Below are positions 14,151 through 37,879 of a stretch of DNA of 64,000 bases, piece after piece (within the stretch, counting starts at the first letter, position 1; every line of letters starts with the position of its first letter). The notes beneath the pieces were generated by a model that ran no database searches, was not told the DNA's origin, and saw only the letters and a list, made by a program, of their open reading frames with translations. Source of the DNA: a virus; IMG/VR virus record IMGVR_UViG_3300006880_000002, positions 2,955 through 66,954 of that record; one strand, given 5' to 3'. The position numbers and the translations under genes were made by a program.

Positions 14151-14918
14151 TTACGCACACCTACGAGCTGAGCGCGCTTCACCTTCGTACGACTCGCGAT
14201 GGTAGACAATCTCAGCGCTAGTCATGGCTATCTGTCCGAGTATCAAAGCCCGAAGATCTTCATCGACTGGGTTTGCTTCGTGCTGTGCGCCGATGAGCGG
14301 AAGCGGTTGGATGAGTCGGTTGTGGTCCAGATCCCACGGCTTTGGGGCACCACCCGGAGCCGTCGGGTCGAACGGGCCACAGCGGTACTGCCAGATGACT
14401 GGCTTGCGTCCGGCTGGTGATGCAGGCGTCTGATTCGGAGTGAAGTGCGCGATCCAGAGTGGATTCTCCAAAATCCACAGCGGAGATCCGAGGAGTCGAA
14501 AGTCAGCTTGCGTGATGTAGATCATGCACGCGCCCCACTCCTTCTTCACTCGGTCGACTAGCTCCTTGAGGTCGGGCTCCCAAGCGGTCGATACTGGAGT
14601 GCCAGGGTCGGGGATCGGATCGAGCTCGACATCGATTGCGGGGATAATGTCACCGTCCCCGATCTGTACGACGTCGGACACGAGCTTCAACATCTTGAAG
14701 TGGTCGTTCACCGGCTGCGACGGGCGATAGAACTGGTAGAGGCCGGTTTTGATACCGAGATCTCGGGCCTTCGAGACGTGCTCGATAGCTTTACGGTCGC
14801 GGAGGGCCCCGCCGTACGACGCGCGACAGATGACGAAGTCGCATGACGCCTTGATGCGTGCCCAAGGCGGGTTCGTGTTGTGGTGAGAGAGATCGACACC
14901 GAAACCTATCGAATCCAC
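14151..14918 (-). CDS. GH25 muramidase (endolysin)
   Basis: GVDLSHHN, YQFY, AIDVE (DxE), LWIAHF, IWQY, DLDHN. Confidence 0.9.
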   Translation of the reverse strand: MDSIGFGVDLSHHNTNPPWARIKASCDFVICRASYGGALRDRKAIEHVSKARDLGIKTGLYQFYRPSQPVNDHFKMLKLVSDVVQIGDGDIIPAIDVELDPIPDPGTPVSTAWEPDLKELVDRVKKEWGACMIYITQADFRLLGSPLWILENPLWIAHFTPNQTPASPAGRKPVIWQYRCGPFDPTAPGGAPKPWDLDHNRLIQPLPLIGAQHEANPVDEDLRALILGQIAMTSAEIVYHRESYEGEARSARRCA

Positions 14919-15553
14919 GCGAACCTTCCCTTCCGCGCGCTGTAGGCGCCGTAAGCAGCTCCAAGAGCGAGTGCGAACGCTCCAGCCCAGAGTGCGCCGT
15001 GTCCCGAGACGGTCGGAGCGCGGAACTCCGGGTGCTCGTGCAGGTAATAGGCGTCGTTCACTGCGGCCTGCACGACCTGGAGCTTCGAGAGATACCCGAG
15101 CACTCCAGCGATATCGCCGAGCGTGAAGTACCCTTTCTTGTTCGGATCGAAAACTTTCTGGTTCTGTTCGTATTCCGCACTCGGCGCTGAGAAGACGACG
15201 TCCCCCGGAGAATGAGCGCGCTTAAGGGCCGCTTGGCTGAGCTGCGCCACCATCAACTTAGCGGCGGAGTCGATGGTCCCGGATCGCGTGGCATCGCGCC
15301 AGTAGTTGAAGATGGGACCGGAGAGTTGCGCGCTTGCCGGCCAGGATTTGTACTCTTCGGGTGAGACGCCAACGTAGTTCGAGAAGGTGCTGCGGCAAAA
15401 TTGGTTCAGACCAACGCACCCGCTAGGGTTCGTCGCGGCTGGGTTGAACTTGCTCTCCAAATAGATGACGGCAAGAACCCACTCGGGACGGATGCCGAGT
15501 TGATTGTTGATCTTCCAGAGCGCGTCAGATGTCCCAGGCTGGTCAAGCGACAC
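14906..15553 (-). CDS. Lytic transglycosylase (SLT-like) with C-terminal TM anchor
   Basis: IYLESKFNPAATN..GLNQF; C-terminal hydrophobic helix + RKGR. Confidence 0.8.
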   Translation of the reverse strand: MSLDQPGTSDALWKINNQLGIRPEWVLAVIYLESKFNPAATNPSGCVGLNQFCRSTFSNYVGVSPEEYKSWPASAQLSGPIFNYWRDATRSGTIDSAAKLMVAQLSQAALKRAHSPGDVVFSAPSAEYEQNQKVFDPNKKGYFTLGDIAGVLGYLSKLQVVQAAVNDAYYLHEHPEFRAPTVSGHGALWAGAFALALGAAYGAYSARKGRFAWIR

Positions 15554-16079
15554 GGCGCGCCTCCTCAGAAGCGGCCCATGCCCAGTCTCGATACCCGTCC
15601 TGGGTCGGGTGGAGATGATCGCCTGCCATCGGGAGGAACTGCGCAGTCACGACAGGTACCCCGAGTGAGGCTATCATGTCGTGAGCCGGCGTGTTCACGG
15701 TTGCAGGCGGCTGGATCCACACGACCTTCGCGCCCATCGCCTGGAGAGTTTGGACGATGCGCTGCGCGTTTGCGGCGCTCGGCGCGTTTCCGTCGTTCAC
15801 CCCGAGAGACACCAGTACTACCTCAGGGGCGAACGTCGACAACCAAGACGGGATCTTCGCCTGATAGGTGTTCAGACCGACGATGCCGGAGCCTTTGAAC
15901 GCCGAGAAGCCGGGACCCATGAACGGCGTGAGCCCAACGGCGTACGAGTCTCCGAAGAGCGCGACGCGCGGTGTCTTCACCTTCTCGTGAGCCTTCTTAC
16001 TAAGAACCAGATGCGTCGTTACGACCGCAACGGCGGCCCCTCCTACAGTGAGAGACTTCCAGTGATCACGCCAAGCCAC
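15543..16079 (-). CDS. SGNH/GDSL hydrolase with N-terminal TM
   Basis: FGDSY, SLGVND, DHLHP. Confidence 0.88.
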   Translation of the reverse strand: MAWRDHWKSLTVGGAAVAVVTTHLVLSKKAHEKVKTPRVALFGDSYAVGLTPFMGPGFSAFKGSGIVGLNTYQAKIPSWLSTFAPEVVLVSLGVNDGNAPSAANAQRIVQTLQAMGAKVVWIQPPATVNTPAHDMIASLGVPVVTAQFLPMAGDHLHPTQDGYRDWAWAASEEARRVA

Positions 16080-16083
16080 GTGG

Positions 16084-16611
16084 TCACCGACCCAAGATCC
16101 CGATCACGGCAACCCAGGACCCTACGAAGTGATCGTTGTCTGGCAAGTAGGTCCCGATCTTGTGGCCCTCACGAGCGTACACGGTGAATCGGATCTGAGT
16201 GACTCCGGTCGTGCTGCACAGCACGCGAAAGACGCAACCTTGCGTGACTGGGATACCTCCGAAACACTGCATCCCGAAAGGAGGTGTCGTCTGAGAGACG
16301 CCGTTTACGACCAACTGGATTTGCGGGTAGTCGCTGCTTCCATTGTTGCTCATCGTTCCGAGGAACGTGATGTCAACATACGTGCCGGCTTCTTGTTGCG
16401 GAATGTCGAAACCCAGCGCCGCGCCGCCGTCCTGTACAAGAAACGGGATCGGGTCGGGAATGTCTGGGTTGAGGTTGACCGGCACTTCGAATTTGCCGGT
16501 CGAATGTGATTCGAACGATAGCGGCAGCACCGAAGGGATCACCGGGGAGAACTTCGCCTCCGGGTACGTCTCCCGGGAGCGTTGTCCTGGTCTCCCGATG
16601 AGTGATCCCAT
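16084..16611 (-). CDS. Beta-rich virion protein with RETYP N-terminal motif
   Basis: MGSLIGRPGQRSRETYPE followed by beta-sandwich-like sequence. Confidence 0.65.
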   Translation of the reverse strand: MGSLIGRPGQRSRETYPEAKFSPVIPSVLPLSFESHSTGKFEVPVNLNPDIPDPIPFLVQDGGAALGFDIPQQEAGTYVDITFLGTMSNNGSSDYPQIQLVVNGVSQTTPPFGMQCFGGIPVTQGCVFRVLCSTTGVTQIRFTVYAREGHKIGTYLPDNDHFVGSWVAVIGILGR

Positions 16612-16617
16612 GGGGCC

Positions 16618-17244
16618 TTAGTACGCGACGAGTGTAGCGGGCCCTACCTGTGGAACGGCTGCCGCGAGAAGCTCCGAGGCGGCCAGCGTGATCGCAGGTA
16701 GGTTACTACCGAAACTCGCGGTGCCTCCTACGAAGAACCCGACTGCGGACGTGTACGCGAGCTGCACCGTCGCTGATGTGGCACCGCCTGGTATCGTGAC
16801 CGCTGCGTAGCAACGGAACGGGGTGCGGAGGTAGAAGTCACCTTCGACAATAGAGAGAACGTTGTTACTTTCTTGGAGCGCGTTCTCGATCCAAAAGAAC
16901 CCGTTACCGGAGGCGTAGTTCGTGGCGCCGTTGAAGCTCACGACGGGGAGCATCCGTTGCAGCCCCTTATCTCCCTCTGGAAACCCGGAGGTTAGTCCTG
17001 ATGCGTCGACCACGAGAATATTCCCGGGGGTGACCCCAGGAAGAACCACTTGAAGAGGTGCTGGCACCATTGCCGCATCACGCTTGATGGTGTCAGCAAA
17101 AGCGACGCTTGGATCTTGGGTGATCGACACCGTAGGCATGTCGAAACCTGTCTTCACGAGCGCGCTTCCGGAGATGACGGTCATCGTTCGAGGTTGTGGG
17201 TACGCTTCACGAGACTTTCCGCCTCTTGGTCCAGTGATGTGCAT
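16618..17244 (-). CDS. Beta-rich virion protein with REAYP N-terminal motif
   Basis: MHITGPRGGKSREAYPQ followed by beta-rich domain. Confidence 0.65.
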   Translation of the reverse strand: MHITGPRGGKSREAYPQPRTMTVISGSALVKTGFDMPTVSITQDPSVAFADTIKRDAAMVPAPLQVVLPGVTPGNILVVDASGLTSGFPEGDKGLQRMLPVVSFNGATNYASGNGFFWIENALQESNNVLSIVEGDFYLRTPFRCYAAVTIPGGATSATVQLAYTSAVGFFVGGTASFGSNLPAITLAASELLAAAVPQVGPATLVAY

Positions 17245-17259
17245 CGGTCTACCTTTCGA

Positions 17260-17490
17260 TCAATCGGAGATCGGGTTGATGAACCGGAGCGAGACAGCCG
17301 AATCCTTCGGTCGTGACGCGTGTGAAAATCCAGAGTAATCCGAGTCGTAGTGCGGATTGTCCCCTGTGTTCGTGTGTACGTTTCTGTTGTTCCGCTTCTC
17401 GTTGTAGAAAGCGAAATCGATGAGCGACCGGGGGGCTCCGTTCTGCGAATGACCACCCTTTGCTTTGAGTGTCTTGAGTTTCTTTCTCAT
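17260..17490 (-). CDS. Small basic hypothetical protein
   Basis: ATGA-coupled, Lys-rich N-terminus. Confidence 0.5.
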   Translation of the reverse strand: MRKKLKTLKAKGGHSQNGAPRSLIDFAFYNEKRNNRNVHTNTGDNPHYDSDYSGFSHASRPKDSAVSLRFINPISD

Positions 17491-17768
17491 GATTCTTCTC
17501 CGTCTTCTTCCTTCAAACCGCCTAGCAGCAGTAACAGAGCCGCATCGACGGAGAGAGCCAAAACACTAATCGCGAAACCTCCGAGGAGGATATCGAGCGC
17601 TCTGCCGTGCCCGAAAATGATGAGCTGGAACGTTCCTGCCCAAGCCCCGACCCAGAATCCCGTGCATTGGCTGCATTCAAGGAGTCCTGGCCAGAGTCGC
17701 CTTCCCTGCTCGAAGATCGTTCCGCGAACGATGATGAGGGTCAGGCCGATGAGGGCGATCCAGATCAC
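17487..17768 (-). CDS. DUF1360-like membrane protein
   Basis: TM helices and LLECSQCTGFW (CxxC-x-x-x-W). Confidence 0.65.
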   Translation of the reverse strand: MIWIALIGLTLIIVRGTIFEQGRRLWPGLLECSQCTGFWVGAWAGTFQLIIFGHGRALDILLGGFAISVLALSVDAALLLLLGGLKEEDGEES

Positions 17769-19021
17769 GTCCCGAGCGAACCTCCTCGGTCGAAGACCCA
17801 GTCGTTGGGCCCGGTCAAGAACCGAGCGACCACGAAGCCTTGCTGCCCCGACGCGATCGTCGCGATGATGTTACCGGCGTTGTCTTTGACGTCGTATTTC
17901 TGAGCAGCGAAGTCTCTCTTCGTGATGCAGATTGTGTCGCCGTTTTTCTCACCGCCGCCGAGCTTCAAGGTTGCGGATCCGTCGCCTGTCTGTCCATCGA
18001 CGGAGTAGTGATTACCGGAGAATGCTCCGCGGTACCCCACGGTTGCCCCGGTTCCGTTGAGTGACACGTCGGTGTTTCCGGTTCCAAGCAAATCGGCCCC
18101 CGGAACAGACCCGCCATCGAACCCGCCGATAACGATGACAGCGGCACCTGTATCACCACCTGGACGAGATCCGCCTGCTTCACTGAACGACTGCCACGAA
18201 ACTCCGTCGAACAGCACCGGTAGCGTACCGTTCGATAGAGTCAGCACTGGGGCGCTAGACTCGCCGAACAACGTGTCTAAGAAGGCTGCTGTAATGCGAG
18301 CCGAGATAGCCGAGACGGAAATAATAGAGTCGAAGGACTGTATCGACCTTCCTGAGAGCGTGTTCCCTGACAAGATGCAGTTCACGATCGAGACGTTCGC
18401 GTTGTCTGCGCCAGTTCCGGCCGTAATTCCGTTTGGGAAGATCGTATTGAGACAGGCGATGTTCGCCAGTTTTTGTGTCGTTGTCGCGTCGACCAGACCT
18501 GTTACGGCGATGTTCGAGTCGCCTATCTCGTCAGCGCTGATGATAAATAATGACGATGGCGCGCTCGCGTCGTCAGTGAGCGTGATCGTTCCTATGACTC
18601 CGATATTGTGCAGACCAGAAACGGCGAGAGAGCCTGCGAAAGCGCCTGCGATGTTGGCCCAAGTCACGTTTCCGGTAATTCCAGTACCCGGACCGAATCC
18701 TTGCGAGTCCGCTCGGAGTTGGGTCGACGCGTACGCTGGAAATGCGACGTTCTCCGTATAGCCTCCAGTGATCGAAGGTGTTACCCATCCCACGTAATTC
18801 GCGGACGCATCGTTGGCGGACACGTTCGTGCGTGACGCCATGAACTGCGCGATCGTCTTGAACGGCGAAGAGCTCGCGCCGTTAAGACCAGTTTGAGTCG
18901 TATCTCCGTCGATGAACCTCTGCCTGGAAAGGGGCGGGAGTGCCGCGAGAATGCCGACTGCTGGGGATTGCGGGTACGACTCGGGCGATCGACCGCCCCT
19001 TCTGTGTCCTGCTAGATGCAT
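17765..19021 (-). CDS. Fibre/spike-like protein (beta-helix-like) with PESYP N-terminal motif
   Basis: MHLAGHRRGGRSPESYPQ; FID..G..G.SSSPFKTI motif typical of beta-helix starts; Gly/Thr/Asn-rich. Confidence 0.65.
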   Translation of the reverse strand: MHLAGHRRGGRSPESYPQSPAVGILAALPPLSRQRFIDGDTTQTGLNGASSSPFKTIAQFMASRTNVSANDASANYVGWVTPSITGGYTENVAFPAYASTQLRADSQGFGPGTGITGNVTWANIAGAFAGSLAVSGLHNIGVIGTITLTDDASAPSSLFIISADEIGDSNIAVTGLVDATTTQKLANIACLNTIFPNGITAGTGADNANVSIVNCILSGNTLSGRSIQSFDSIISVSAISARITAAFLDTLFGESSAPVLTLSNGTLPVLFDGVSWQSFSEAGGSRPGGDTGAAVIVIGGFDGGSVPGADLLGTGNTDVSLNGTGATVGYRGAFSGNHYSVDGQTGDGSATLKLGGGEKNGDTICITKRDFAAQKYDVKDNAGNIIATIASGQQGFVVARFLTGPNDWVFDRGGSLGT

Positions 19022-19033
19022 GTTGAGCTCCTA

Positions 19034-19525
19034 TCAGCCTGGTTCCGCGACTTCGACTAATGTGAGCACCGAGTTGGCCGTGACGATGTTGACTAGGGCG
19101 TCACCGATCACTTTCACGGTTACGTTCGACAGAACCCCAACGACGAAGGAGAGTCCGGTTACGTATGAAAGAACGTCGTTGGTTCCAGCTGGAATGTTGA
19201 TCGTCATGGCTGCCGGAAGTTGCGCTACTCCGTTCACCAGAATTTGAACGGTCACATCGTGGGCCGAAGCGTCGGCGTTGAAGAGTCCAACAGAGATCGA
19301 GGCTATGGCCAAACGGCTTGACTTCGCCGTAAATGGAACGTTCGTTCCAGGGGCCAAAGTGCTTAGTACAGCGATCCACGGAATGATGGTTCCGCCAGGC
19401 GCTGCTTGTGTATCAGGCCCAGGCCCAACAGCTCCGTTCGTTGCGAACGGACCGAGTTTGGAAGCGAATCGCGGACGCTCGGGGTAAGTCTCCCGAGCAA
19501 AATTCCTACCCATTCTGTGAGCCAT
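19034..19525 (-). CDS. Beta-rich virion protein with RETYP N-terminal motif
   Basis: MAHRMGRNFARETYPE followed by C1q/BclA-like beta strands. Confidence 0.65.
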   Translation of the reverse strand: MAHRMGRNFARETYPERPRFASKLGPFATNGAVGPGPDTQAAPGGTIIPWIAVLSTLAPGTNVPFTAKSSRLAIASISVGLFNADASAHDVTVQILVNGVAQLPAAMTINIPAGTNDVLSYVTGLSFVVGVLSNVTVKVIGDALVNIVTANSVLTLVEVAEPG

Positions 19526-19527
19526 GT

Positions 19528-19710
19528 TCAGCGTTCCTTTTTGGCGATTTCGACGAGACGCGCGACCTGCTCCGCGCTGAGCTTGATGTGTCCCACCGAT
19601 CCGTTCTCCGTATCGTCATCGGAGATCGTCATCGATCCGTCCTCGAACTTCGCTACGGTCGGGCAGCAACGTTTTCCGTAGCAGAGCATCTCTTCGTGGA
19701 TCTTCATCAC
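19528..19710 (-). CDS. Small hypothetical protein
   Basis: Coupled ORF, CYGKRCCP motif. Confidence 0.55.
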   Translation of the reverse strand: MMKIHEEMLCYGKRCCPTVAKFEDGSMTISDDDTENGSVGHIKLSAEQVARLVEIAKKER

Positions 19711-20942: not shown

Positions 20943-21596
20943 TTACCGACGTCGTTTCTTACGAGTCGCGAGATACACACCACCGCCGACGACGGCGACG
21001 CCGCCTGCGATGATTCCGACCTTCATTCCGGTCGAGAGACCTGAGAATCCCTTACCCGCCTGGCACCACTTGCTCTCAGGGTCAGGGAAACCTGTGGGGA
21101 AATTCGTCGGGTCGAGCGCGGCCGTCATCACGAGCGCGCAGAGCGAGTCGTCGTCGAACACGCCGTCGGTTCGGAGCTTTCGTGCCGACGAGTTGATCGG
21201 CACAACGTTCGCGTTGTACCAGTTCTGAAAGCACCCACCGGCCGCGGCGATCGACGGACCCCACGTCTTACAGCTAGTGCCCGTGTTCTTCACGATGAGA
21301 TCGTTCAGTTTCGTGAGCGTGTTCATCACCCACGCCTGCTGATCGCGGTTGAGCTTCACCCACACATCGCCACTGGCGCCGAGTCCGAGCTCGAAACCAG
21401 CAAGGCCAGTACCGCCGAGAGAAATTTGTTCGTTCATGAGGGTTCCTGTGCAGCCCGGACCACCCGGGAGGGTTTGGGCGTAGTTGCACGCCGCCTGACG
21501 CATACCCGGATCGGTCGGCCCCTGAACAGGGACGTCCTTCACGAAATTGTTCTGTCCGGAGACGCGTGCGGTAGCTTGGGCAGGGGTCATAGCCAT
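20943..21596 (-). CDS. Membrane-anchored virion protein
   Basis: Cys-rich ectodomain, LRTDGVFD PG-binding-like motif, GLSTG-TM-RKKRRR. Confidence 0.7.
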   Translation of the reverse strand: MAMTPAQATARVSGQNNFVKDVPVQGPTDPGMRQAACNYAQTLPGGPGCTGTLMNEQISLGGTGLAGFELGLGASGDVWVKLNRDQQAWVMNTLTKLNDLIVKNTGTSCKTWGPSIAAAGGCFQNWYNANVVPINSSARKLRTDGVFDDDSLCALVMTAALDPTNFPTGFPDPESKWCQAGKGFSGLSTGMKVGIIAGGVAVVGGGVYLATRKKRRR

Positions 21597-21823
21597 CGAG
21601 GTTCTCCGAGTCCGTGGACCGTTCCGGTATCCAGCGCGCGTTGATCTTCACGCGCGGCGACATAGATACCGGTCATGACGGCGTTGAGCGCGCCGACGAC
21701 GAACGCCGCTTTGAGCACCGGGTGAGAACGAGACGAATCAGCGACAGCGCCACCGATGGCGCCAACGACTGCGCCACCGATGGCGCTACCGATCATTGCT
21801 CCTACGACGTTGCTCACAACCAC
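21587..21823 (-). CDS. Small glycine-zipper membrane protein
   Basis: GxxxG-rich helices; ends TGTVHGLGEPRWL. Confidence 0.7.
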   Translation of the reverse strand: MVVSNVVGAMIGSAIGGAVVGAIGGAVADSSRSHPVLKAAFVVGALNAVMTGIYVAAREDQRALDTGTVHGLGEPRWL

Positions 21824-22065
21824 CTCGGTTCTCCGAGGCCGTGAACGGTCCCGGTCTGAACGACAATCTCTTCTTTCGTTGGAGCGGCTCCAAGGGCAGC
21901 TCCGGTAGCGGCGCCCACCAAAGCGCCAACAATGGCGCCATCCGTTGCCGAACTAGAGCTGAAATATCCGGGGCCTCTAACGTACTCTTGACCGACGTGC
22001 TCACCGAAGATCGCACCGATCCCTCCGCCGATCACGGCTCCGAGCCCTGCCGCCAAACGACTCAC
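21814..22065 (-). CDS. Small glycine-zipper membrane protein
   Basis: GxxxG-rich helices; ends TGTVHGLGEPRWL. Confidence 0.7.
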   Translation of the reverse strand: MSRLAAGLGAVIGGGIGAIFGEHVGQEYVRGPGYFSSSSATDGAIVGALVGAATGAALGAAPTKEEIVVQTGTVHGLGEPRWL

Positions 22066-22964
22066 GGGACGTCCTCCCCGATGTTCTGGTCGAACACGAG
22101 CGCTCCGGCAATGACGCCATACTTCGCGAACGTCGGGAACGCCGCGACGAATTGATCCTCGGGAGAGAGGGAGTAAAACACCTGTGTGAGCGTGTCAGTG
22201 GTCGAGAGCGTCACGTTGAGCGACGTGTCGGGCTGCCGGACGCTCGCGTAGAGCTCGACGATGCACGGAGCGGGGATCGGGATATCGAGCGCGTACTCCG
22301 GCTGGTTCGAGCGCCACGGGTAACGAAGCTCGTGAATGGTGCCGAGAGACGCGCCAATCGGCGTTCCCCACGGACGCCCGCCGTTCGGAGGCACGTAGGC
22401 GCCGGCCGCCGTCTGATTGTAGAGGAGCGCCGGAGAATCACTCTGCTGGTAGATGAACCCCGGAGCGTTCAGAGGATTTCGGTGGTCACGATACCCCTGA
22501 GGGCGAACCATGACGTGCCAGGAGATATTGCCGTCCTGCGGGTGCCAGAGAGGGCTAGTGATCTCCTTCCGGAACGTGACGGTCGAGCCAGCCGCCGGAC
22601 CTGATCCGGATGCGAGCGGAGGAGAAGTACGACCAGGGATGCGCGCGATGAGCTCGGCGTACTGCCGGATCCCGACGAGACGCGCGCCTTGATTGAGCGC
22701 GTTGTTCTCGGCGTTCGTGAAAGCGGCGCGAGCAAGGAGGAACAGGTACCGAGCTCCTCCGATTGACGCGCTCGCCGCGTCCGGCACGACTAGACCGGTG
22801 TACGAGTTCGTCTTGTACGGATCGGAGCCCGCGAAATCGAATTCTGGGTTCGGGCCGTTCGTGACGACTTCGAAGCGCCCGTTCTCCAGCGGCATACGGA
22901 TCCCCGCCGCAGGGCTACCGGGGTAGCGCTGAAGCGGGATCACGTTGTTCTGGAGAGTCCTCAT
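22062..22964 (-). CDS. Beta-rich structural protein (penton/vertex candidate)
   Basis: Alternating beta strands; downstream of the capsid candidates. Confidence 0.5.
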   Translation of the reverse strand: MRTLQNNVIPLQRYPGSPAAGIRMPLENGRFEVVTNGPNPEFDFAGSDPYKTNSYTGLVVPDAASASIGGARYLFLLARAAFTNAENNALNQGARLVGIRQYAELIARIPGRTSPPLASGSGPAAGSTVTFRKEITSPLWHPQDGNISWHVMVRPQGYRDHRNPLNAPGFIYQQSDSPALLYNQTAAGAYVPPNGGRPWGTPIGASLGTIHELRYPWRSNQPEYALDIPIPAPCIVELYASVRQPDTSLNVTLSTTDTLTQVFYSLSPEDQFVAAFPTFAKYGVIAGALVFDQNIGEDVP

Positions 22965-22967
22965 TGA

Positions 22968-23576
22968 TTATCTGTGCGCGATCTTGCTGAGATCCGGGAT
23001 GTCCCACGAGGGGAACAGAACACGAAGAAGCGAGCGAGCTTCCTCGTTGCTCATGTCGTCGATCTCCTTGGCAAGGAACTGCCACCCGTTGAACGTGATC
23101 GACACGTCGTACGGGACGGACACCGGGGTGTCCTGGAGGATCGCGGTCACCTTCACGTTGCTCTGCTTGTCGAGCGGCCAGCCTTGCGGCCACGTGACGG
23201 CGAACACGTCGGCGATGTTGCCGAGATCGGTGAACTGGTCGTTCACGTTGTACTTGGGGCCGCCGAAGACGGCGAGCTGGACCCCGACGCCCGTGCGACC
23301 ACTCTGCTTCATCTGGTTTTCCCAGAGGCTTTGGAGCGGCGAACCGGGGAAGCTGTTCTGTTGCTTCAGGTTGAACGAGACGCGCTCGATGAGCGTGTCC
23401 TGCGTCAGGTTGTTCGAGAAGCTCTGCACGATCGGCGGCGCGTTCACCGTCGATGAGGAGAACTGGAGGTTGATGTCGCCGACGAACGGGACCCGAGGGA
23501 CCCCGATCACCATGGCGTACGCGAACTTCGGCGCGTAGAGCGCGAGATTCTTCAGGTCGTGGTCTCTGGGCTGCAT
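22968..23576 (-). CDS. Candidate small (single jelly-roll) capsid protein
   Basis: 202 aa, about eight beta strands, terminal strand YDVSITFNGWQF; strong SD AAGGAG; strongly G/C-ending codons. Confidence 0.5.
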   Translation of the reverse strand: MQPRDHDLKNLALYAPKFAYAMVIGVPRVPFVGDINLQFSSSTVNAPPIVQSFSNNLTQDTLIERVSFNLKQQNSFPGSPLQSLWENQMKQSGRTGVGVQLAVFGGPKYNVNDQFTDLGNIADVFAVTWPQGWPLDKQSNVKVTAILQDTPVSVPYDVSITFNGWQFLAKEIDDMSNEEARSLLRVLFPSWDIPDLSKIAHR

Positions 23577-23662: not shown

Positions 23663-24976
23663 TCAGGCGCTCTTCGGGAGCATGCCGCTTCCCTGACAGA
23701 AGTCCTTCCAGCCTCCGGGCATTTCCCATCCCTTGATCTTGATGCCGATCTTCAGGATGCCGCCCTTGAAGAGCTCGCGGCAGACGTTGACCTGCTGCGG
23801 CTGGTTGATGGGGTCGGCGTCGAGGGTCTGTTCGAGCATGACGCCCGTGCCGGTGCTCGTCGTGCAGGTGAGGTTCTCGTCGATCGAGATGTTCGTGCCG
23901 AGCGCGCCGTTGTTCATCGTGAGCGCTTCGATCATCGCGGCCTGGTGAACCGCGTCCTGCGCCTGGAAGAGCATCCCGATCGGAATGCCGCGCTCCAGGA
24001 AGCAGGGGCTTTCGACCGGGCGGTACATCTGACCGCGGCAGCCGTATCCCTGCCACCGGAGCCCGCCCCAGGTCACCGGAGAGAGATCGTAGTCGCGAGT
24101 CGCGTGGAACACGCCGAAGTTGTTCGCCGCGGCAGCGCCACCGACCTGCACGCTTCCGACACGGCGGAAGTTGACGGGCAGGAAGATGGTGTTCGAGCCC
24201 TTCGCGCGGTACGTCGCGTTGACGATCGCCACGAACTCGATGATGGCCACCTCGCTCGTACCGGCCGCTTCCGCGTCCGCGAACGAACCGAAGTAGCTCA
24301 CGTCTGCGGCCAGCTCGTTGAGGACGAGCTCGCGCTGCGACGTACGCCACTGGAACTGGTAGGCGTTGATGAAGTTCCAACCTGCGCGCCACACGTCGGC
24401 GCCCCAGGTGAAATCGGCCGGACTGAACGTCTCGTCGTCTGCATCGTCGCCGAGCGCGCCGTTGGTGAGATCGTTCAACGTGAAGACGTCCGGGCTCGGA
24501 GGCGGAGCCGCGTCCTGGCTCGGAGCCACGAACGCGTTGCCGATCGTCGAGAACGACATCGGCTCGTGGAAGACGTGGACGCCCACGCCTTGGGCGAGGA
24601 TGTCGGTCTGGAGAATGCCGTTGATGAGGAACGTCGAGTCGATCGACGCCACACCAGCCGCGCTCGAACCGCCCGAGAGCAGGTTCACCACGTCGCCGAA
24701 GGTCGAAAGAGCCTCGGTCGCCGTGAGGGGGAGCGGGATCGTCCACACGACCTCTTCGATGACCGGCACGTTGCCGAAGCTGCACCGAATGCACTTCTCG
24801 GCGAGTCCGACGGCTCCGCGCTCCATGCCGGCGAGACCCGCGCTCTTCGCGGCTTCGGCCGTCTCCGGCGTCATGCCGTAGCCGAAGGGAATGCGCTTGG
24901 TGCGGTCGCGATTGTCGGCGTACCGCTTAGTGATCTTGCCCGTGATCTTCTGTCCGTTGAACTCTTTTGCAGCCAT
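23663..24976 (-). CDS. Candidate major capsid protein (jelly-roll-like)
   Basis: 437 aa, beta-rich, SD AGGAG, strongly G/C-ending codons, downstream hairpin, terminal strand ILKIGIKIKGWE. Confidence 0.55.
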   Translation of the reverse strand: MAAKEFNGQKITGKITKRYADNRDRTKRIPFGYGMTPETAEAAKSAGLAGMERGAVGLAEKCIRCSFGNVPVIEEVVWTIPLPLTATEALSTFGDVVNLLSGGSSAAGVASIDSTFLINGILQTDILAQGVGVHVFHEPMSFSTIGNAFVAPSQDAAPPPSPDVFTLNDLTNGALGDDADDETFSPADFTWGADVWRAGWNFINAYQFQWRTSQRELVLNELAADVSYFGSFADAEAAGTSEVAIIEFVAIVNATYRAKGSNTIFLPVNFRRVGSVQVGGAAAANNFGVFHATRDYDLSPVTWGGLRWQGYGCRGQMYRPVESPCFLERGIPIGMLFQAQDAVHQAAMIEALTMNNGALGTNISIDENLTCTTSTGTGVMLEQTLDADPINQPQQVNVCRELFKGGILKIGIKIKGWEMPGGWKDFCQGSGMLPKSA

Positions 24977-25085: not shown

Positions 25086-26414
25086 TTACTCGGCGGCCGC
25101 TTCTCCAGAGAGAAACGCGCTGTACCGAATGCCGGGGGTCGGCGCGTCGGCGCAACCGCACGACGCGTCGTTCGGTTGTGGACCGGGGCCTGGGCCGGGC
25201 GGGGGACCCGGCTGCCAACCTTCGCCCGTGCCGGCCATCGCCTGTGCCGCTGTCGGCATGTCGCGAAGACCGGTTCGGAGGGCGTCCTGCGCGGTCGGCA
25301 TCTCTGCCGTGCCGGCCATCGCCTGAGCCGCCGTCGGGCGCTGACGATCGTCGGCGCCCGAGAGAGCACCAGCGCCGGACGCGGAGAGCGCCTGCATCTT
25401 CTGCTCGATGTTGATTCGAGCGGAGATTTCGGCCGGGTAGAGCCGAGCAAGCTTGCTCGACTGAAGCGCCGACGCCGACGTGTCCTTCGGTTTGAGGAGC
25501 CGTCCAATGACGAGGGTCGTGAAGAGCATCTTCAGGGTCGAGATACCGGCGCCGAGTGCGAGCCCTTCGAGGGCCACCTTCGCCGTCTTGTTCTTCACAA
25601 ATGCCGCGCCGACAGCCGGCACGACGGGAGCCGCGACGCCCACCGCGATACGCTTCCAGTTCGGAGTCGCCGCGATGTTCATCGTATTCGCGAGCATTCC
25701 GGTGCCGGAGCTCGTGAACTTGTCCTTCGGCGCCTCGGTCCCCGCGGGGTTGTAGGTCGCCATGAAGCGGTCGAGAGCATCCGCGGCGAGGAAGCCGACG
25801 GTGCCGGTGAAGGCCGCCATCGCCAGGTTGCCGGCGCTCATGCCGCCGCTCGACGCGTACATGCGGCGGCTACGGCGAGGAGCCGAGACGGACGACCGAC
25901 GGCGGTTCGCGCGGACCGCGCGCCGACGCCGACGTGGGGACGCCACGGCCGTCTCGTGCATCTTCTTACGGCGCCTCTTGGCCCAACCCTTCTTCGCCGC
26001 CCGGCGGTGCGCCTTCTTGTGGCCATGCCACGCGCTCACACGTGCCCGACGACGCCGCGGGGTCGCGACGGTTGCCGAAGCACGCGCCCGGCGAGCCCGA
26101 CGACGAGCTGGAGCCGCAGCCACCGCAACCTTCCGTCGCCGACGCCGACGAGGAGTGGCGACCGCTGCCGCGTGTACCTTCCGACGCCGATGAGAGCGAC
26201 GGGGACGGGAACGACGGGCGCGCTTGGACGCCTTCTTCTTGTGGCTGCGCTTGCGACGGGATTTTGCCATGGGCTTGTCTTTCTTCACCTTCGAGGACTT
26301 GGCGCTCTTCGTGCGCTTGCCGGATGCTTCAGGTTCAATACGACGCAATCGCCTCGCAGCGACCCTTGATCGGGATTCGCTGAGAGCTGCGAGTCTGTCG
26401 TCGTAGAGACCCAT
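25086..26414 (-). CDS. Protamine-like Arg-rich protein with hydrophobic segments (candidate core/nucleoprotein)
   Basis: Long R/K/A/S tract with repeated (T/S)PRRRR, then hydrophobic helices and PTAAQAMAGT repeats. Confidence 0.75.
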   Translation of the reverse strand: MGLYDDRLAALSESRSRVAARRLRRIEPEASGKRTKSAKSSKVKKDKPMAKSRRKRSHKKKASKRARRSRPRRSHRRRKVHAAAVATPRRRRRRKVAVAAAPARRRARRARASATVATPRRRRARVSAWHGHKKAHRRAAKKGWAKRRRKKMHETAVASPRRRRRAVRANRRRSSVSAPRRSRRMYASSGGMSAGNLAMAAFTGTVGFLAADALDRFMATYNPAGTEAPKDKFTSSGTGMLANTMNIAATPNWKRIAVGVAAPVVPAVGAAFVKNKTAKVALEGLALGAGISTLKMLFTTLVIGRLLKPKDTSASALQSSKLARLYPAEISARINIEQKMQALSASGAGALSGADDRQRPTAAQAMAGTAEMPTAQDALRTGLRDMPTAAQAMAGTGEGWQPGPPPGPGPGPQPNDASCGCADAPTPGIRYSAFLSGEAAAE

Positions 26415-28751: not shown

Positions 28752-30344
28752 TCAACCGCCTTGCTCCCACGCACGCTGGCCCGGGGGAGGCGCCTCCGTC
28801 TCTTGGATGGTGGGAGGTACAGCTTGAGGAGGGGGCGGGAGACCTTGCTGCGGCGCCGGAGCGGGCGTCACGACGGCCTGCGGCTGTGGCGGTGGTTGCT
28901 GGTCTTCATAGACGAACCTGTAACCCTCGGGGGGTTGATCGCCGGATCGCACGTTCACCTGCTGTCCTACGTACGGTTGTTGCTTCGGGGGCTGCGTCGG
29001 CGCTTGCTCCGTTTCACGACGATTCTTCTCCTCTACCTTGTCCAACATGTCGCCGAGCCACTTGAGCGCCTTCGGAGCGCCGACCATGAGGGTCGGGGCC
29101 CACTGGATCTTGCCATCCTCGTCGTGGATGACGTCCATGTCCCCGATCTTCTTGGTGCGAAGACCGCTGTCGTCTTCTTGTGACGTCGTCTCTGGTTCGT
29201 CGGGCTCGGGAACACTTCCGCCGCCGCCAAACACGCTCTGCACCTCGGACGCGAAGCTCCGCATCTGACGCATCTGCGTGAGCCCGTCACGCCACGCGTC
29301 CATTTGTGAGCGCTGTGGTTGCTGCGGCTCTTGTGGAGGAGGTCTTTGCTGCGGACGGTACGGAGGCTGCTGTCGTTCGTACCCACCTCCGAGATCACGT
29401 CGCTGTATCGGCTGAATCGTCCAACCTGTGTCCGTGCGGAACACGAGCTCGTGGCCCGGAGGAGGCGTCACAGCCGGAGGTTGTGGAACCGCCGCCGCGG
29501 CAGGTTGCTGCGGCACGAATTGCTGCTGGGGCACCGGAGCCGGCGCTGGCTGTTGGGGCTGTTGACCAGGAGGACGCCACCCCATGCTCTCGAACCACTG
29601 CGCCATCTCGCGCATTTTGGCCATGTCCGTTCCAGGCGGCGGGGGTTGAGGCACCGGAGCTTGCTGTTGTCCAGGCGGCTGAAAACCAAGTCCTATGAAG
29701 TAATCTCGCCACGCGTTCAACTCGGCGAACTGATCTTTTGCTGGCGGAGGCGCAGCGGCGGGCTGCGGCACAGGTTGAGGAGGCACACCGTACGGGGGCT
29801 GCTGTGGCGGATATCCCATGGGTTGATCTCGCAAGTGAGCCGGACGTGTGTCCGGGAGAACGATGCGGCCTGTCCCTTTGAATTGGCCGTCGGGAGTGAC
29901 GAACTGGATCTTGTACTCAGCCTCCGCGCTCGGTCCGTGGTAGCGCATGAGCGTTTCGTACATGTCATCGGCGTTGCGAGGACGGTTCTTGATGACGTAC
30001 GACACCTGATCCCCGGTGAGCCGCTTCATACGGATGGTGAGCGCGCTCGCTCCGTACGCTTTCACCAGACCGTCGTAAGACGTCATAATGTCGTCGCTGT
30101 TGAACGAGACGTGTCTCTCGCCCGACTTCTTGCGTTTCACCGCGTCTCGACGTCTACGATTTTCGAGCACGCTCTCGGCATCGGCCGCACCGACACGGCG
30201 AATGTTTTCCGTAGATGTGACGAGATCCCCGTTCTCGTCTTCTGTCGCTCGTGCCTGTTGGATGACGTCTTCCTCGTCATCTGCGAATGGCGTGACAGGG
30301 TCACGCTCGCGCGGCCGTCGTGTGCTTGCCATGCCGTTGTTCAA
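28752..30344 (-). CDS. Pro/Gln-rich largely disordered protein
   Basis: Folded N-terminal part then long PQ tracts with two G-(F/W)-x-PPGQQ repeats. Confidence 0.7.
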   Translation of the reverse strand: MNNGMASTRRPRERDPVTPFADDEEDVIQQARATEDENGDLVTSTENIRRVGAADAESVLENRRRRDAVKRKKSGERHVSFNSDDIMTSYDGLVKAYGASALTIRMKRLTGDQVSYVIKNRPRNADDMYETLMRYHGPSAEAEYKIQFVTPDGQFKGTGRIVLPDTRPAHLRDQPMGYPPQQPPYGVPPQPVPQPAAAPPPAKDQFAELNAWRDYFIGLGFQPPGQQQAPVPQPPPPGTDMAKMREMAQWFESMGWRPPGQQPQQPAPAPVPQQQFVPQQPAAAAVPQPPAVTPPPGHELVFRTDTGWTIQPIQRRDLGGGYERQQPPYRPQQRPPPQEPQQPQRSQMDAWRDGLTQMRQMRSFASEVQSVFGGGGSVPEPDEPETTSQEDDSGLRTKKIGDMDVIHDEDGKIQWAPTLMVGAPKALKWLGDMLDKVEEKNRRETEQAPTQPPKQQPYVGQQVNVRSGDQPPEGYRFVYEDQQPPPQPQAVVTPAPAPQQGLPPPPQAVPPTIQETEAPPPGQRAWEQGG

Positions 30345-30766: not shown

Positions 30767-31026
30767 GAAGGCTCCTCTGAAAAATTGAGGCGAGCGAACT
30801 CGCCGAAGTGTTTGCGTGCAGCTGAGTCGTAGGCGCGGGCGGCTTCCTCTTCAGTGACGAAACGGCCGATGTAAATCAGTTGACGATCGACCCGAACGCG
30901 AGCGAGCCATGGTGCGGCTCCGGGAGCAAACGGACCTGAGCATCCTCGACCGATTCGAGAATTTTCTCGACCACGTTCTCGCTGGAACTCCGTACCGCAC
31001 CGGAGACACGTCAGATCGACTTTCAC
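30763..31026 (-). CDS. AP2-domain protein lacking HNH
   Basis: WLARVRVD..IYIGRF-x-TEEEAARAYD-x-AARKHFGEFARLNF; N-terminal CLRC. Confidence 0.75.
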   Translation of the reverse strand: MKVDLTCLRCGTEFQRERGRENSRIGRGCSGPFAPGAAPWLARVRVDRQLIYIGRFVTEEEAARAYDSAARKHFGEFARLNFSEEPS

Positions 31027-31682
31027 AGGCGTCCGTCCTCCAGGAAGCTGTAGAAACTCGGATCTTTCACACTGCCCCCGGCGATTATATGGTCCAAGAG
31101 ACAAATCTCCAGGCCACTCTCGTTGAGCGTGTCAAATACCTCGACGAAAGCTTCCGTCGTTTCGATGTCAGCTTCACTAGGCTGCGCTTCGACCCCAGAT
31201 GGATGGCAGTGGAACAAAATAATCGCGTGAGCCCCATCAATGAGCGCCGCTTGAAGTGTGGGAACCATCGGTGCCATGACGCTCGTTGGTTCGCCGCGCC
31301 CCGTCTCGAAAACGCTCTTCATACGCATGTGTAGATCGAGCGATACCCCACCGAAGACCTCGTTCACTTCATCACCGATGGCCTCCATGATGAGCTGAGC
31401 CGCCTTCTTCGGCGTGTCGAGGGGCCCGATCTCGTCGGCGAGCGCGTTGCACGCCGCGAACCTCTCAGCGTCCTTCTGAACAACGAGGAACGGGCGACAC
31501 TTTGAGCCTGGTCCTCCGGCGAGCACGATGGGGTCGATGCCTTCCGGAGTTTTGGGTCGCACCTTCTCGGCAACCTCACGAGCGCGGAGCTTCGCTTGCT
31601 TCGGCAGGTGGCACTCGCAGGGCTTCTTGCTCTGTACAGCACGCACCATGCGAGGCGCTACGATGTAGGGACGGGCGCTCAC
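31023..31682 (-). CDS. RadC-like JAB-domain protein
   Basis: E, HCHPSG, PSEAD, LLDHII; GTG start coupled to upstream stop. Confidence 0.85.
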   Translation of the reverse strand: MSARPYIVAPRMVRAVQSKKPCECHLPKQAKLRAREVAEKVRPKTPEGIDPIVLAGGPGSKCRPFLVVQKDAERFAACNALADEIGPLDTPKKAAQLIMEAIGDEVNEVFGGVSLDLHMRMKSVFETGRGEPTSVMAPMVPTLQAALIDGAHAIILFHCHPSGVEAQPSEADIETTEAFVEVFDTLNESGLEICLLDHIIAGGSVKDPSFYSFLEDGRL

Positions 31683-32101
31683 GCTGGTGCGCCTTCGACG
31701 GCTTCCGAAGTAACCCGTACCTTCTCGACGGTCTCCACACCGTTCGAACCTTCGAGCACGATCTTGTCGGCCGACTCCTCGCCCGGAAGAACGATGAAGT
31801 CTTCGAGGGAGAACTCCGAACAGCGCGCGATGATGTTGTTGTCCCACACGCCGGCAACGGGGTTCTTCGTCGGAACGATTACCCGGTGACCGCGGTGGAA
31901 GTGCATCTCGAAGCACATCTTCGCCACGATCAGATCGCCGGGTTTGTAGCCTTCCTTCGCGGCCTCCTCCCCGACGAGCTCGATCAGATAGTGCCGCGTG
32001 ACGTTCTTGGACGTCTGACCCGTCGTGAGCACGATCTGGCTCTTCACCTTCGGCACAAGGGCGCGACAGATCATGTAGTAGGCTTCGGCTTTGTATTTCA
32101 C
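31679..32101 (-). CDS. GroES-like co-chaperonin candidate
   Basis: SQIVL (mobile-loop-like), LVG, YKPGDLIV, NNIIA follow GroES motif order. Confidence 0.45.
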   Translation of the reverse strand: MKYKAEAYYMICRALVPKVKSQIVLTTGQTSKNVTRHYLIELVGEEAAKEGYKPGDLIVAKMCFEMHFHRGHRVIVPTKNPVAGVWDNNIIARCSEFSLEDFIVLPGEESADKIVLEGSNGVETVEKVRVTSEAVEGAPA

Positions 32102-32766
32102 TGGATCTCCTCGGAGGTTTCTTCGGTCTCAGGTGGCGGTCGGTCGAACTCTGCCATGAGGGCCAGCGGGTTGAGTTTCTCTCGTTCCGCGGGCCCCGCG
32201 GGCGTCTCGTTCGGGGGAGGTTGAAGGGGAGGCTTTCCACTCGCGGTGTGCCGCAGACGCAGCCCTTCGAGCTCTTCTTGATCGGCGGCCCACGCCGAAA
32301 GCACTTCAGAGTAGAGCTCTCGACTCGGAGCAAAGTAGGTCGTGTTCACGAGCCGTCGAGCCTCGACGGGGGCAAACTGCCTCGCTGCGTTGAGTATTAC
32401 GAGAAGACTCATCCGGATTTCTCGATCGGGACACGCCGCGAGGCACGGAGCCGTTTCGTCATGTTCACCAGGACAGTCGGTCGCATGACGGCAGCGCGGA
32501 AGCATTTCGTCGATTTGTCGCCAAGCAATTTCCCACGACGTGCGGCTACGCCAGAGGGCGAGCGTGAGTGAGCTCCAGTCGCGTTTCGAGACGGAGATCT
32601 TGTCGTCGCCTGGGTTCGCAAAGCCCATCATGCGCTTCTGCGCTGGGTTCGCCTTCGGCTTCGGTGCAGCGATCAAAGGCTTCTGTTTCTTGCCTACCGT
32701 TCCGCGCCAAGCAAGCCACACCATGAAGAGGATTGCGACGACGTAGAGCAAATCCAAAAAATTCAT
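32098..32766 (-). CDS. N-terminally anchored membrane protein
   Basis: N-terminal TM, Cys cluster, acidic tail. Confidence 0.6.
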   Translation of the reverse strand: MNFLDLLYVVAILFMVWLAWRGTVGKKQKPLIAAPKPKANPAQKRMMGFANPGDDKISVSKRDWSSLTLALWRSRTSWEIAWRQIDEMLPRCRHATDCPGEHDETAPCLAACPDREIRMSLLVILNAARQFAPVEARRLVNTTYFAPSRELYSEVLSAWAADQEELEGLRLRHTASGKPPLQPPPNETPAGPAEREKLNPLALMAEFDRPPPETEETSEEIQ

Positions 32767-35605: not shown

Positions 35606-37879
35606 TCAATTCACGGCACCGACGGCTCTACGGATCGCGTAAACCACGCAAGCCGCGGGCATTTCCTTCTCCCCGCGAAGAATGATGACCCACATCGCGT
35701 CCTCCTCTGCCGGGAGCCGTTCGGCTTCGTGCGCCGACATCTGTTCGAGCCCGGAGATGAGACGGGGGGCCCCGGGACGCGCGAGACGCTGCATGCGCTC
35801 GATGACGACCGATCGAGGCTCGATTTGAAACCGTGAGGGGTCTAGCGCGTTGATCGCGATCACGAGATCGCCGGTACCGAGCGCTTCGCGTGACGAACGG
35901 TATGCATCGAGGAGGCTTGCGGGGTTGCACATCCTGTTGAGTAGGTGCTGCATCTGAGGCGGGGTGCCGCGTCCGTACGCAAGTTCCGTCGTGAGTTTCA
36001 TCGCTGTCATTGTCAGGTTCCTTTTCTTGGGTGGTTTGAATGCTTAATGGGTCATGTGCGGAAGCGGCGGCGGTTCCCGGTATCGGTTGAGCTTGAGCGG
36101 TTCGCCGGCCTCCGTACAACTGCGACCGTCCAAGCACCGTTCGTACCAAACGAACATCTTGTCGGAGTCGTCGCTTTCGAGCTTCAGCGCGGCCTCCAGT
36201 TCTTGTTTCTGATCCGCGAGCAACCGGAGCGACGGCGCTGCTTCGTCGATCGCTGCTCGTCGTCCTTGTTTGTAAGCGAATAACCCGGCGAACGTGCCCG
36301 CGATCAAGGCGATGATCAGATAGTGCAGAAGCGCCGACGCAAAATGCTTCACGGTTGCCACCCATGGGCTGCGGACTGCTGTTTCACGGTTGCCCCTTGA
36401 TCTTTTCAGTGATCGCGCCACCTTCCGCGCGTTCGCACTCCAAGGCGAGCGCGGCGATGTAGGCCCGACACTCTTTCGCGGTTAGTGTCGTTCTCATCCC
36501 CCGACGATACGGCCCGTACCAAGTAAGTGTGACCGCAGGCCCTGTGAGTTTCCCGCGGACGCCATTGGGATGACCGTATGCATCGAGAGTGTACTCTCCG
36601 GCACGCACGCCACTGGGTGGAGGACTCAACTCGCGCGTGCTCGACTCCGTCTGGTCTGCCGTTTCGTGCTGCTTCACGGCGCGCCGCGAGCATACTAGCG
36701 AGTGGTGCGGCAGGCGTTTGCCGCACTCCTGGCAGAATCGTTTGGGAGTCAGAGACATCACCCACCCCCGTGGTCGTGAGAGGGGGCGAGGGCTCCGGAG
36801 CAGGGGCCTTCCGGCATGCTGAACGCGGTCATGGTTTCCCCGCAGAGTAAGCACCAGTCGTTACCTACGCCGTCCGGTTCCCACGCATGGCCATTGTTCA
36901 GAATGACGCCGGCAGAACCGGGGATGGCGGCACGTTCCGAGTAGCGCCGCAGCGCTTCATCTACTGGCCATGTAACGGCGCTCCCTAACGCTTTCCGCAA
37001 CCTTTCATTTTCCTCCGCCATCGCCCGCAGCGCGGCGTCGCGGTCACGGAGGGCGGCTTCTACTACGTCCAGCGCATCCCACACGAAATGCTCCTCGTGA
37101 GGCGCCATTGCCTGAACGAAGCCAGTTACTTCTGCCAGCGCGGCGATGGGGTCGGGGGCGGTCATCGCCATTCCCGGAGAATGCGATGCGCTCGCATGAT
37201 GCATCTGAAGCCGAGTTCGTTCTGTTTGATGTTGTATAGCAATTGCCCCAAGTGCACGAGCACACGGATCCGGAGCAGCGTGACCACGTGAAACCAATAT
37301 CTTCGTTCCATCACCGTCCCCCCTTCCCCGTCGCGGGGTGCTCATCCGTTGCCGTCCCGAACCACTCGGCGCGACGCTCAATGATCTTCTCCTCCCACAG
37401 AGCGGCCGCTTCTCGGGATTGCGCGGCCAATCCTCGGTCTCCCTGGCGTTCGTAGCGAGCCGCATCTTCCTCGAAGCGCTGCACAATCCGGCCCATATGC
37501 GACAAAATGTGGGCTCGCCGTATCTCGATCTCCGACGCGCGTTCGCAGGCGTTGAGCGCACGTTCATCAGGTAGCGTCATCGCTGCCCCTTCCCCGTCGC
37601 GGGGCGTTGGTGGTTGGAATGCTTCACGGCGCGCGAGTGGTCTTTCATAAGCGCGCTCATTCAATTCTGCTCTAGCTTGCGTTCGCGCTCTTCTAGGACG
37701 TTGAGCACGTGATCGCGAAAACGCTCTAGGTCATACACGGTAAAGCCGCCTTCCGGTGCCTGGAACGACCATAGGACTTCCCCTGTATCCTGATCGACCC
37801 AATCGAACCAGCGATCGGCTCTGGGTCTGAGAACCATGTGTCTGGATTGCTTCACGGGTGTACTCCAATCCTTGCTCAC
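35606..37879 (-). other. Run of small coupled hypothetical genes (35606-36010, 36044-36352, 36384-36758, 36758-37165, 37162-37311, 37311-37580, 37577-37660, 37661-37879)
   Basis: Stop/start overlaps; no recognisable family. Confidence 0.55.
37320..37604 (-). repeat. 19-bp exact direct repeat at consecutive gene ends
   Basis: CCCCTTCCCCGTCGCGGGG at 37320-37338 and 37586-37604. Confidence 0.85.

Follow-up and report, generated by a model that had tools for sequence, protein, structure and literature searches.

The stretch of DNA considered here (the window, 64,000 nucleotides) comprises bases 2955-66954 of the complete, 66,954-bp IMG/VR virus record IMGVR_UViG_3300006880_000002, which carries a 100-bp direct terminal repeat. 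A minus-strand block of same-strand genes, running from about 32.8 kb down to 12.5 kb, contains four open reading frames (ORFs; Table 1) whose products all have at their N-terminus a basic peptide that ends in (E)(T/A/S)YP. This peptide is a real, strictly N-terminal element which is under selection at the protein level, occurs throughout a lineage of related viruses, and heads unrelated fibre-like bodies in a hypervariable gene cassette. We favour, with moderate confidence, the view that its approximately 16 residues serve as a plug-in virion anchor for interchangeable fibres and spikes.

A six-frame translation of the window contains four copies of the pattern [RP]E[TAS]YP[EQ], one in each of the four ORFs at about residues 11-18. 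It was found in none of 50 base shuffles (simple shuffles, which do not preserve dinucleotides), and the rest of the 66,954-bp record holds no further copy. Both the ORFs and their N-termini are exactly as quoted in a preliminary description of this DNA, which had proposed that four unrelated beta proteins share a docking motif. A stop codon lies 14-16 codons 5' of the motif in three of the four ORFs, which forces its N-terminal position in these cases, and purine-rich, Shine-Dalgarno-like stretches precede each ATG according to our reading of the DNA alignment. The same alignment of the four copies is invariant at 17 of its 128 columns. Past residue 25 the four proteins are without significant mutual similarity (blastp, best E 0.03 in a four-sequence database) and, as the preliminary description had supposed, are therefore not full-length paralogues by sequence. 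Gene functions were assigned by scanning 50 ORFs against Pfam and 20 against PHROGs; none of the four motif proteins had a match in either collection.

Table 1. Principal features of the gene block, by position in the window. Fractions of loci refer to the 29 related IMG/VR loci described in the text.
Feature	Position	Strand	Remarks
Motif ORF 1, 163 amino acids (aa)	19034-19525	minus	Putative anchor peptide at residues 1-16 (nt 19478-19525)
Motif ORF 2, 418 aa	17765-19021	minus	Putative anchor peptide at residues 1-18 (nt 18968-19021)
Motif ORF 3, 208 aa	16618-17244	minus	Putative anchor peptide at residues 1-17 (nt 17194-17244)
Motif ORF 4, 175 aa	16084-16611	minus	Putative anchor peptide at residues 1-18 (nt 16558-16611)
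Two small conserved ORFs within the cassette	17260-17768	minus	93 aa (two hydrophobic segments) and 76 aa
60-aa Cys-containing ORF	19528-19710	minus	Directly upstream of the cassette; kept in 20/29 loci
437-aa major-capsid-protein candidate	23663-24976	minus	Beta-sandwich model; possible docking target
202-aa core protein	22968-23576	minus	Candidate penton or second capsid protein; possible docking target
300-aa core protein	22062-22964	minus	Partner candidate of the preliminary description
217-aa protein	20943-21596	minus	C-terminal hydrophobic anchor and basic tail; alternative docking candidate
GH25 muramidase, SLT transglycosylase and SGNH hydrolase genes	14151-16079	minus	Directly downstream of the cassette

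Conservation of the peptide and the proteins behind it

Relatives were retrieved from IMG/VR by means of the 437-aa ORF, which yielded 29 loci at 62-74% identity. A profile hidden Markov model (HMM) of the peptide was run on 5,606 six-frame fragments drawn from 30 related loci and the window, with a cut-off of 7.4 bits. The 49 matches at or above this value correspond to 43 distinct ORFs, located in 18 of the 29 loci and in the window. Since 30 of these sequences had served to build the model, the other 13 constitute independent finds; the best non-member, an arginine-rich off-frame fragment, reached 6.9 bits. The docking motif of the preliminary description is thus conserved in relatives, and the profile search across metagenomic loci proposed there has extended it beyond its training set.

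All 43 ORFs lie on the strand of the 437-aa gene, while a sample of further motif copies was distributed over both strands, and an ATG is found 0-8 codons before the peptide in 38 of the 43. The family consensus is MSHIIGRGRYARETYP, of which the window carries looser versions ending in R/P-E-T/A/S-Y-P. The tyrosine is invariant (43/43) and the proline nearly so (40/43), with the Gly-x-Gly and the glutamate strongly kept. Rarer variants include STYE and ETYD. Each conserved residue is encoded by two to six synonymous codons, one arginine column using six, which places the constraint on the peptide and not on a DNA repeat.

Among the 11 loci without an HMM match, two are fragments of at most 5 kb and six form part of a second clade. 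Another has sub-threshold variants ending in TYE, and the contig of a further one, L045, has a canonical copy about 90 kb away; the last, L003, is taken up below. Whole records were also searched with a frame-correct degenerate DNA pattern, for which reversed-pattern controls gave 0 matches throughout. Three complete close genomes contained 3, 4 and 4 matches, as did three of five second-clade records (again 3, 4 and 4), in which canonical copies are separated from the 437-aa gene by 20-40 kb. The idea that the second clade does without the motif and uses another peptide was rejected on account of its presence in these three records. Over all of IMG/VR the canonical DNA pattern was found at 17 places in 11 contigs, 10 of which were already known from the 437-aa search. 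This distribution indicates a motif which is lineage-specific, widespread within its lineage, and absent from a more distant branch. Motif genes number four in the window genome and at least six in the record of locus L027. The further motif genes of relatives, elsewhere in the same genomes, are mostly collagen-like and adjoin SGNH/SLT genes as in the window.

With their first 25 residues set aside, the 43 proteins were sorted by blastp into 26 clusters, of which 22 contain a single member; protein lengths range from 77 to more than 1,850 aa. The bodies of the 208-aa and 175-aa window proteins have no homologue in the 29 related loci, in all of which the flanking core genes are present. That of the 163-aa protein has weak homologues in five loci, and that of the 418-aa protein recurs in eight, including at the C-terminus of collagen-repeat proteins of 944 and more than 1,850 aa; one body occurs both with and without a collagen stalk. 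A Gly/Ser/Pro linker commonly follows the peptide, and 13 of the 43 proteins contain at least four consecutive G-X-Y triplets, with up to 347 triplets. Pfam Collagen matches nine of the 43 (best E 2e-135), none of them in the window, and the Ice_binding, Pect-lyase_RHGA_epim and Beta_helix families match one protein each. The nine NCBIfam families found among the 43 include collagen-like adhesin models for the same nine proteins, ice-binding, beta-helix and a few weak others, while PHROG 'tail fiber' matches, likewise in nine, are driven by repeats.

For the 418-aa protein, which the preliminary description had guessed to be a beta-helix, the ESM Atlas offers leads only: a right-handed beta-helix-like model (template-modelling, or TM, score 0.58-0.61) and a feature score of 0.90 to a pectate-lyase-like phage cluster. 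The guess may be retained at that level. Bodies such as those described above are hallmarks of trimeric fibres and enzymatic spikes which are swapped as modules behind a constant N-terminal element.

The particle and the carrier lineage

Within the module the gene of the 437-aa capsid candidate is the best conserved. All 29 close loci encode the 202-aa, 300-aa and 217-aa proteins, the first two of which, the core proteins, are also present in five distant loci. Homologues of the two small cassette ORFs were found in 18 (93 aa) and 14 (76 aa) of the 29.

A search of 1.84 billion clusters returned 188 representative relatives of the 437-aa protein (E <= 0.001). None of 99 relatives had a Pfam match, and there was no sequence match in the PDB. 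Folding from a 25-sequence alignment gave a predicted local distance difference test score (pLDDT) of 39.5; the 99-sequence alignment used instead gave a mostly beta model with a pLDDT of 88.3 and a predicted TM score (pTM) of 0.85. A Foldseek search with this model returned nothing at E <= 1e-3, and Z did not exceed 6.0 in exhaustive structural alignment, where jelly-roll capsid proteins were interspersed among carbohydrate-binding sandwiches. On re-examination of the best 1,000 Foldseek matches, the top nine were the capsid proteins of PRD1, PR772, STIV, SGIV (an iridovirus) and SPV1, with Z of 6.5-5.5 over 140-169 residues. Judging from the model, the protein is probably a vertical jelly-roll capsid protein.

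The 202-aa and 300-aa proteins had no profile match in Pfam or PHROGs, nor, with shallow and deep alignments alike, a meaningful one in the PDB, and profile-profile comparison among the two and the capsid candidate found no relationship (probabilities 0.1-0.3). The 300-aa protein has 456 matches at E <= 0.001, and an Atlas lead to a ConA-like lectin, with a score of 0.85, lies below the trust level of the tool.

The family scans of 50 (Pfam) and 20 (PHROGs) ORFs detected no terminase, portal, HK97 capsid, tail or protease family. Six-frame searches for Terminase_6N (PF03237), Phage_capsid (PF05065) and FtsK_SpoIIIE (PF01580) likewise gave no match, the last of these covering the complete genome, and the sole ORF with a Walker A motif encodes a UvrD/RecD-like helicase spanning the ends of the record. 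The position expected of a terminase is occupied by a 530-aa ORF (28752-30344, minus strand; in 20 of the 29 loci), whose Pro/Gln-rich product lacks both a Walker A motif and a family match. The structural block is headed by a RadC-like JAB-domain protein of 436 aa (31023-32333, minus strand; Pfam RadC, E 1.1e-17; in 18 of the 29 loci), which could be a metallopeptidase of particle maturation or unrelated to the particle.

Small glycine-rich membrane proteins, as well as membrane-anchored proteins with basic tails, are encoded in the module. Directly upstream of the capsid candidate lies the gene of a 442-aa protein (25086-26414, minus strand), the first 190 or so residues of which are Arg/Lys-rich and protamine-like, followed by hydrophobic segments and a Pro/Gly-rich tail. 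Its homologues, in 26 of the 29 loci, measure 447-1,047 aa, and it may be a DNA-condensing core protein. The fold matches of the capsid candidate, the small membrane proteins and this protamine-like protein together incline us towards a tailless, membrane-containing particle as the more plausible architecture.

Among the ORFs scanned, Pfam and PHROGs identified a family A DNA polymerase, SNF2 and UvrD-like helicases, a primase-polymerase, DpdA and an integrase, together with the cell-wall enzymes GH25, SLT and SGNH, peptidoglycan (PG)-binding repeats and the RadC-like protein. The DpdA-family protein (39217-40953, minus strand; Pfam E 1.2e-66) adjoins a weak radical-SAM match (37876-38823, minus strand), and the phage DNA is probably modified with a 7-deazaguanine derivative.

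The virus had no match among 50,697 GenBank phage records. Prophage copies were not found in 185,579 species genomes, among which there was one true match, on a 5.8-kb contig of a metagenome-assembled genome of Binatia, and limited keyword searching of the literature returned no description of the lineage or the motif. As to the host, Acidobacteriota and Binatia are leads only. We tentatively entertain, as a possibility less probable than not, that these viruses form an undescribed and abundant lineage of large phages (55-128 kb) which are tailless, contain a membrane and build a jelly-roll capsid; they would lack any recognisable packaging ATPase, possess a protamine-like, Arg-rich core protein, and bear up to half a dozen or more different collagen-like fibres and enzymatic spikes, each mounted by a universal 16-residue N-terminal plug.

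The peptide as a putative anchor

We infer that the peptide binds the virion, that the proteins which bear it are external, and that its receiver belongs to a small set of conserved proteins. Under this scheme the peptide would fit into a single conserved site of the particle and so allow any fibre or spike carrying it to be mounted there; its fusion to the unrelated distal domains is often by way of a Gly/Ser/Pro linker or a stalk in the form of a collagen-like triple helix. These domains would include beta-helix or pectate-lyase-like spikes, an ice-binding-like solenoid and small beta-rich heads, and their free exchange would change host recognition. Four proteins are candidates for the receiver: the 437-aa capsid candidate, the core proteins of 202 and 300 aa, and the membrane-anchored protein of 217 aa.

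The preliminary description had envisaged a plug-in system in which interchangeable spikes share one peptide for a common vertex protein, possibly the 300-aa product. The modular part of that proposal holds up well, in that a conserved N-terminal module heads unrelated, interchangeable proteins, many of which are fibres or spikes (collagen, beta-helix, pectate-lyase-like). The choice of partner fares less well, as nothing tested singles out 22062-22964. Up to six or more motif genes in a genome would be as compatible with the decoration of numerous sites on the capsid as with 12 vertices, and fibres that are trimeric and so numerous would suit threefold capsomers no less than fivefold vertices. 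Complex prediction with the capsid candidate, the 300-aa and 202-aa proteins and residues 1-45 of the 163-aa protein scored 0.00 twice, for an input of four monomeric chains unlike those on which the tool was calibrated, an outcome that speaks neither for nor against any of them. Phyletic profiles show the 60-aa ORF, a PG-binding protein and the 93-aa ORF in most cases together with the motif, a pattern which L003 breaks. The 217-aa protein was not detected in the five distant loci lacking the motif, where it is perhaps too diverged to detect.

Several observations on the candidate receivers and their surroundings may be recorded here. In one relative (L020:11296-13109) two tandem paralogues of the 202-aa protein are followed by a 160-aa motif ORF before the 300-aa gene. 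Two others have an ORF of 360-400 aa between the 202-aa and 300-aa genes (L019:12049-13260 and L018:11977-13065). The N-terminus of this inserted ORF may be that of a GIY-YIG homing endonuclease, which it seems to resemble. Two glycine-zipper membrane proteins of the window, 78 and 83 aa long (21587-21823 and 21814-22065, both minus strand), share the 13-residue C-terminal peptide TGTVHGLGEPRWL, perhaps another docking element of the structural module. The N-terminal arm of the capsid candidate contains an h-G-L-G motif (RVPFGLG or RxIGLG; 24875-24889, minus strand, in the window) conserved in all clades, and several small second-clade ORFs start with a similar SRGGRPVxGFGLG (L017, L018, L020, L021, L023, L024 and L033-L037). 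A loose regular expression for the latter is noisy, with 48 same-strand against 28 opposite-strand N-terminal matches, and this likeness is unconfirmed. The idea that the fibre peptide mimics the N-terminal arm of the capsid protein was rejected, given that the peptide HMM scores capsid N-termini no higher than noise.

A number of points weigh against an anchor of the kind proposed. The loosest copies of the peptide are those of the window (16-19 bits, in a family whose scores reach 31), and the window proteins themselves are without linkers or collagen repeats, so that it is from relatives and a single Atlas lead that they are taken to be fibres. Being very basic (R-G-R-x-x-R), the peptide would also suit the binding of DNA or membranes, and neither profile comparison nor phyletic profiling found a docking partner. 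In L003, from a 37%-complete record, the genes flanking the cassette are present and there is no motif ORF within 10 kb; the complete second-clade genome G006 has no match to the strict pattern; and the motif is found in none of five more distant relatives, whose 437-aa proteins are 42-46% identical. As these last keep the trio of capsid candidate, 202-aa and 300-aa proteins, the core particle does not need the motif. The eleventh contig of the IMG/VR-wide search, 65% complete, has motif genes, and the capsid-candidate gene was not detected in it. Finally, all fold matches of the 437-aa protein have Z <= 6.5, in the 'common' range of the tool and below the advised 8, for which reason its identity is given as probable and not as established.

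Alternative explanations differ in what they take the peptide to be attached to, and for how long. Beta-helix, depolymerase-like bodies are typical of tailspikes and genomes of 55-128 kb of tailed phages, and the repeat-driven PHROG 'tail fiber' matches in nine of the 43 proteins point the same way; the carrier might accordingly be a highly divergent tailed phage, in which a baseplate or adaptor, and not a capsid vertex, receives tail fibres or tailspikes through the peptide. Modular N-terminal attachment is standard among the receptor-binding proteins of such phages (PMC8262889). Known tail anchors, however, are folded domains of 50-150 aa as opposed to 16-aa peptides, and neither the six-frame searches nor the family scans detected a terminase, HK97 capsid, portal or tail family. 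The most conserved structural protein is moreover modelled as a beta-sandwich whose top nine matches are capsids of PRD1, STIV and iridovirus type, and the module encodes several small membrane proteins and an Arg-rich, core-like protein. We therefore regard a tailed carrier as unlikely. The peptide might equally be a handle for a chaperone or modifying enzyme, or an element of trimer registration, given that help with folding or registration is often required by fibres of the collagen-like and beta-helix kinds, and that the cassette follows a conserved 60-aa ORF containing Cys in 20 of the 29 loci. Yet it is also present on small repeat-free proteins, the registration elements of collagen-like proteins are usually folded domains, and L003 has the 60-aa ORF without nearby motif genes; we give this reading very little credence.

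A temporary role is conceivable as well. Internal proteins of T4 bear a capsid-targeting sequence which loads them as cargo and is then removed, and a signal cut off in this manner, or a propeptide for a virion protease, would suit a peptide that sits at the extreme N-terminus of unrelated cargo with a flexible linker next to it, particularly in a gene block whose RadC-like JAB protein (31023-32333) could in principle be a peptidase. The cargo nevertheless looks external, its collagen stalks extending to 347 triplets and its beta-helices resembling those of depolymerases. The family scans showed no recognised prohead protease, and the invariant Y-P is no obvious cleavage motif. A removed signal appears quite improbable to us. 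Lastly, the conserved element may lie in the DNA, as a recombination handle or a translational or regulatory element whose peptide is itself functionless: hypervariable genes have the motif at their 5' boundary, and a sequence shared at this point would promote the exchange of modules. The codon data, with two to six synonymous codons per conserved residue and only 17 of 128 DNA columns invariant among the window copies, largely refute this explanation, and we hold it to be scarcely credible.

Should the plug-in peptide prove sufficient as a tag, it would explain how host-recognition modules are swapped, with a hypervariable cassette set against a constant plug and particle. If the anchor reading is true, all fibre and spike genes of these genomes, which otherwise resist annotation, could also be found by a simple sequence criterion, and foreign domains could be displayed on a phage particle with a small tag of natural origin. 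The lineage is without recognisable hallmark genes, and its particle and packaging mechanism could add a new branch among bacterial viruses. Were the lineage as we tentatively picture it, its fibre docking would represent a bacterial-virus counterpart of that of adenovirus and of the 'hair' of giant viruses and exosporia, and a natural plug-and-play display system.

Comparison with known systems

The preliminary description had likened the motif to the FNPVYPY peptide of adenovirus fibres. According to PMC8156859, adenovirus fibre tails bind a cleft between two penton-base monomers by a short, conserved N-terminal peptide on a trimeric fibre, common to different fibres. The functional analogy stands, while the likeness in sequence extends little beyond the Y-P, the consensus here being MSHIIGRGRYARETYP and strongly basic. 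Stalks are collagen-like or absent here and beta-spiral in adenovirus, there are from four to six or more fibre genes per genome, no penton-base homologue was identifiable, and attachment at a vertex is putative.

Among bacterial viruses, PRD1 and PR772 offer a parallel in P5, a trimeric host-recognition spike with a collagen-like motif and an N-terminal part for attachment to the capsid. P5 is attached through a jelly-roll domain of about 124 residues, homologous to the penton protein P31, and joins the penton (PMC6750898). The carrier lineage would resemble PRD1 in being bacterial and probably a membrane-containing jelly-roll virus, and it has collagen-like stalks (Pfam Collagen in nine of the 43 proteins, none of them among the window's four). 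In contrast to P5, the shared element here is of about 16 residues, followed by linker or collagen, without a penton-homologous domain of about 120 aa, and no core-protein or capsid-module frame scored 7.4 bits or more with the peptide HMM.

Tailed-phage receptor-binding proteins, for example Klebsiella phage depolymerases, combine a conserved N-terminal module with exchangeable C-terminal specificity, several per phage (PMC8262889). Their anchors are folded domains on tails, in contrast to a 16-aa peptide in a genome with no detectable tail genes.

An architecture like that of many of the relatives, though not of the window four, is found in BclA, with its N-terminal peptide, collagen-like stalk and trimeric beta-sandwich head forming a 'nap' on a protein shell; residues 20-38, a 19-residue peptide, suffice for stable binding to trimeric BxpB (PMC10470788). 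BclA differs in being cellular (it belongs to the Bacillus spore exosporium), its peptide is unrelated in sequence, no BxpB-like partner was identified here, and no exosporium-leader family is among the nine NCBIfam families matching the 43 motif proteins. By sequence, then, the present peptide would be placed with none of the adenovirus fibre, PRD1 P5, BclA or tailed-phage anchor families. The adenovirus fibre tail and BclA are precedents for a short N-terminal peptide docking trimeric fibres on a protein shell; the logic of a plug-in peptide is thus already known elsewhere, while the phage lineage which carries this one is apparently undescribed.

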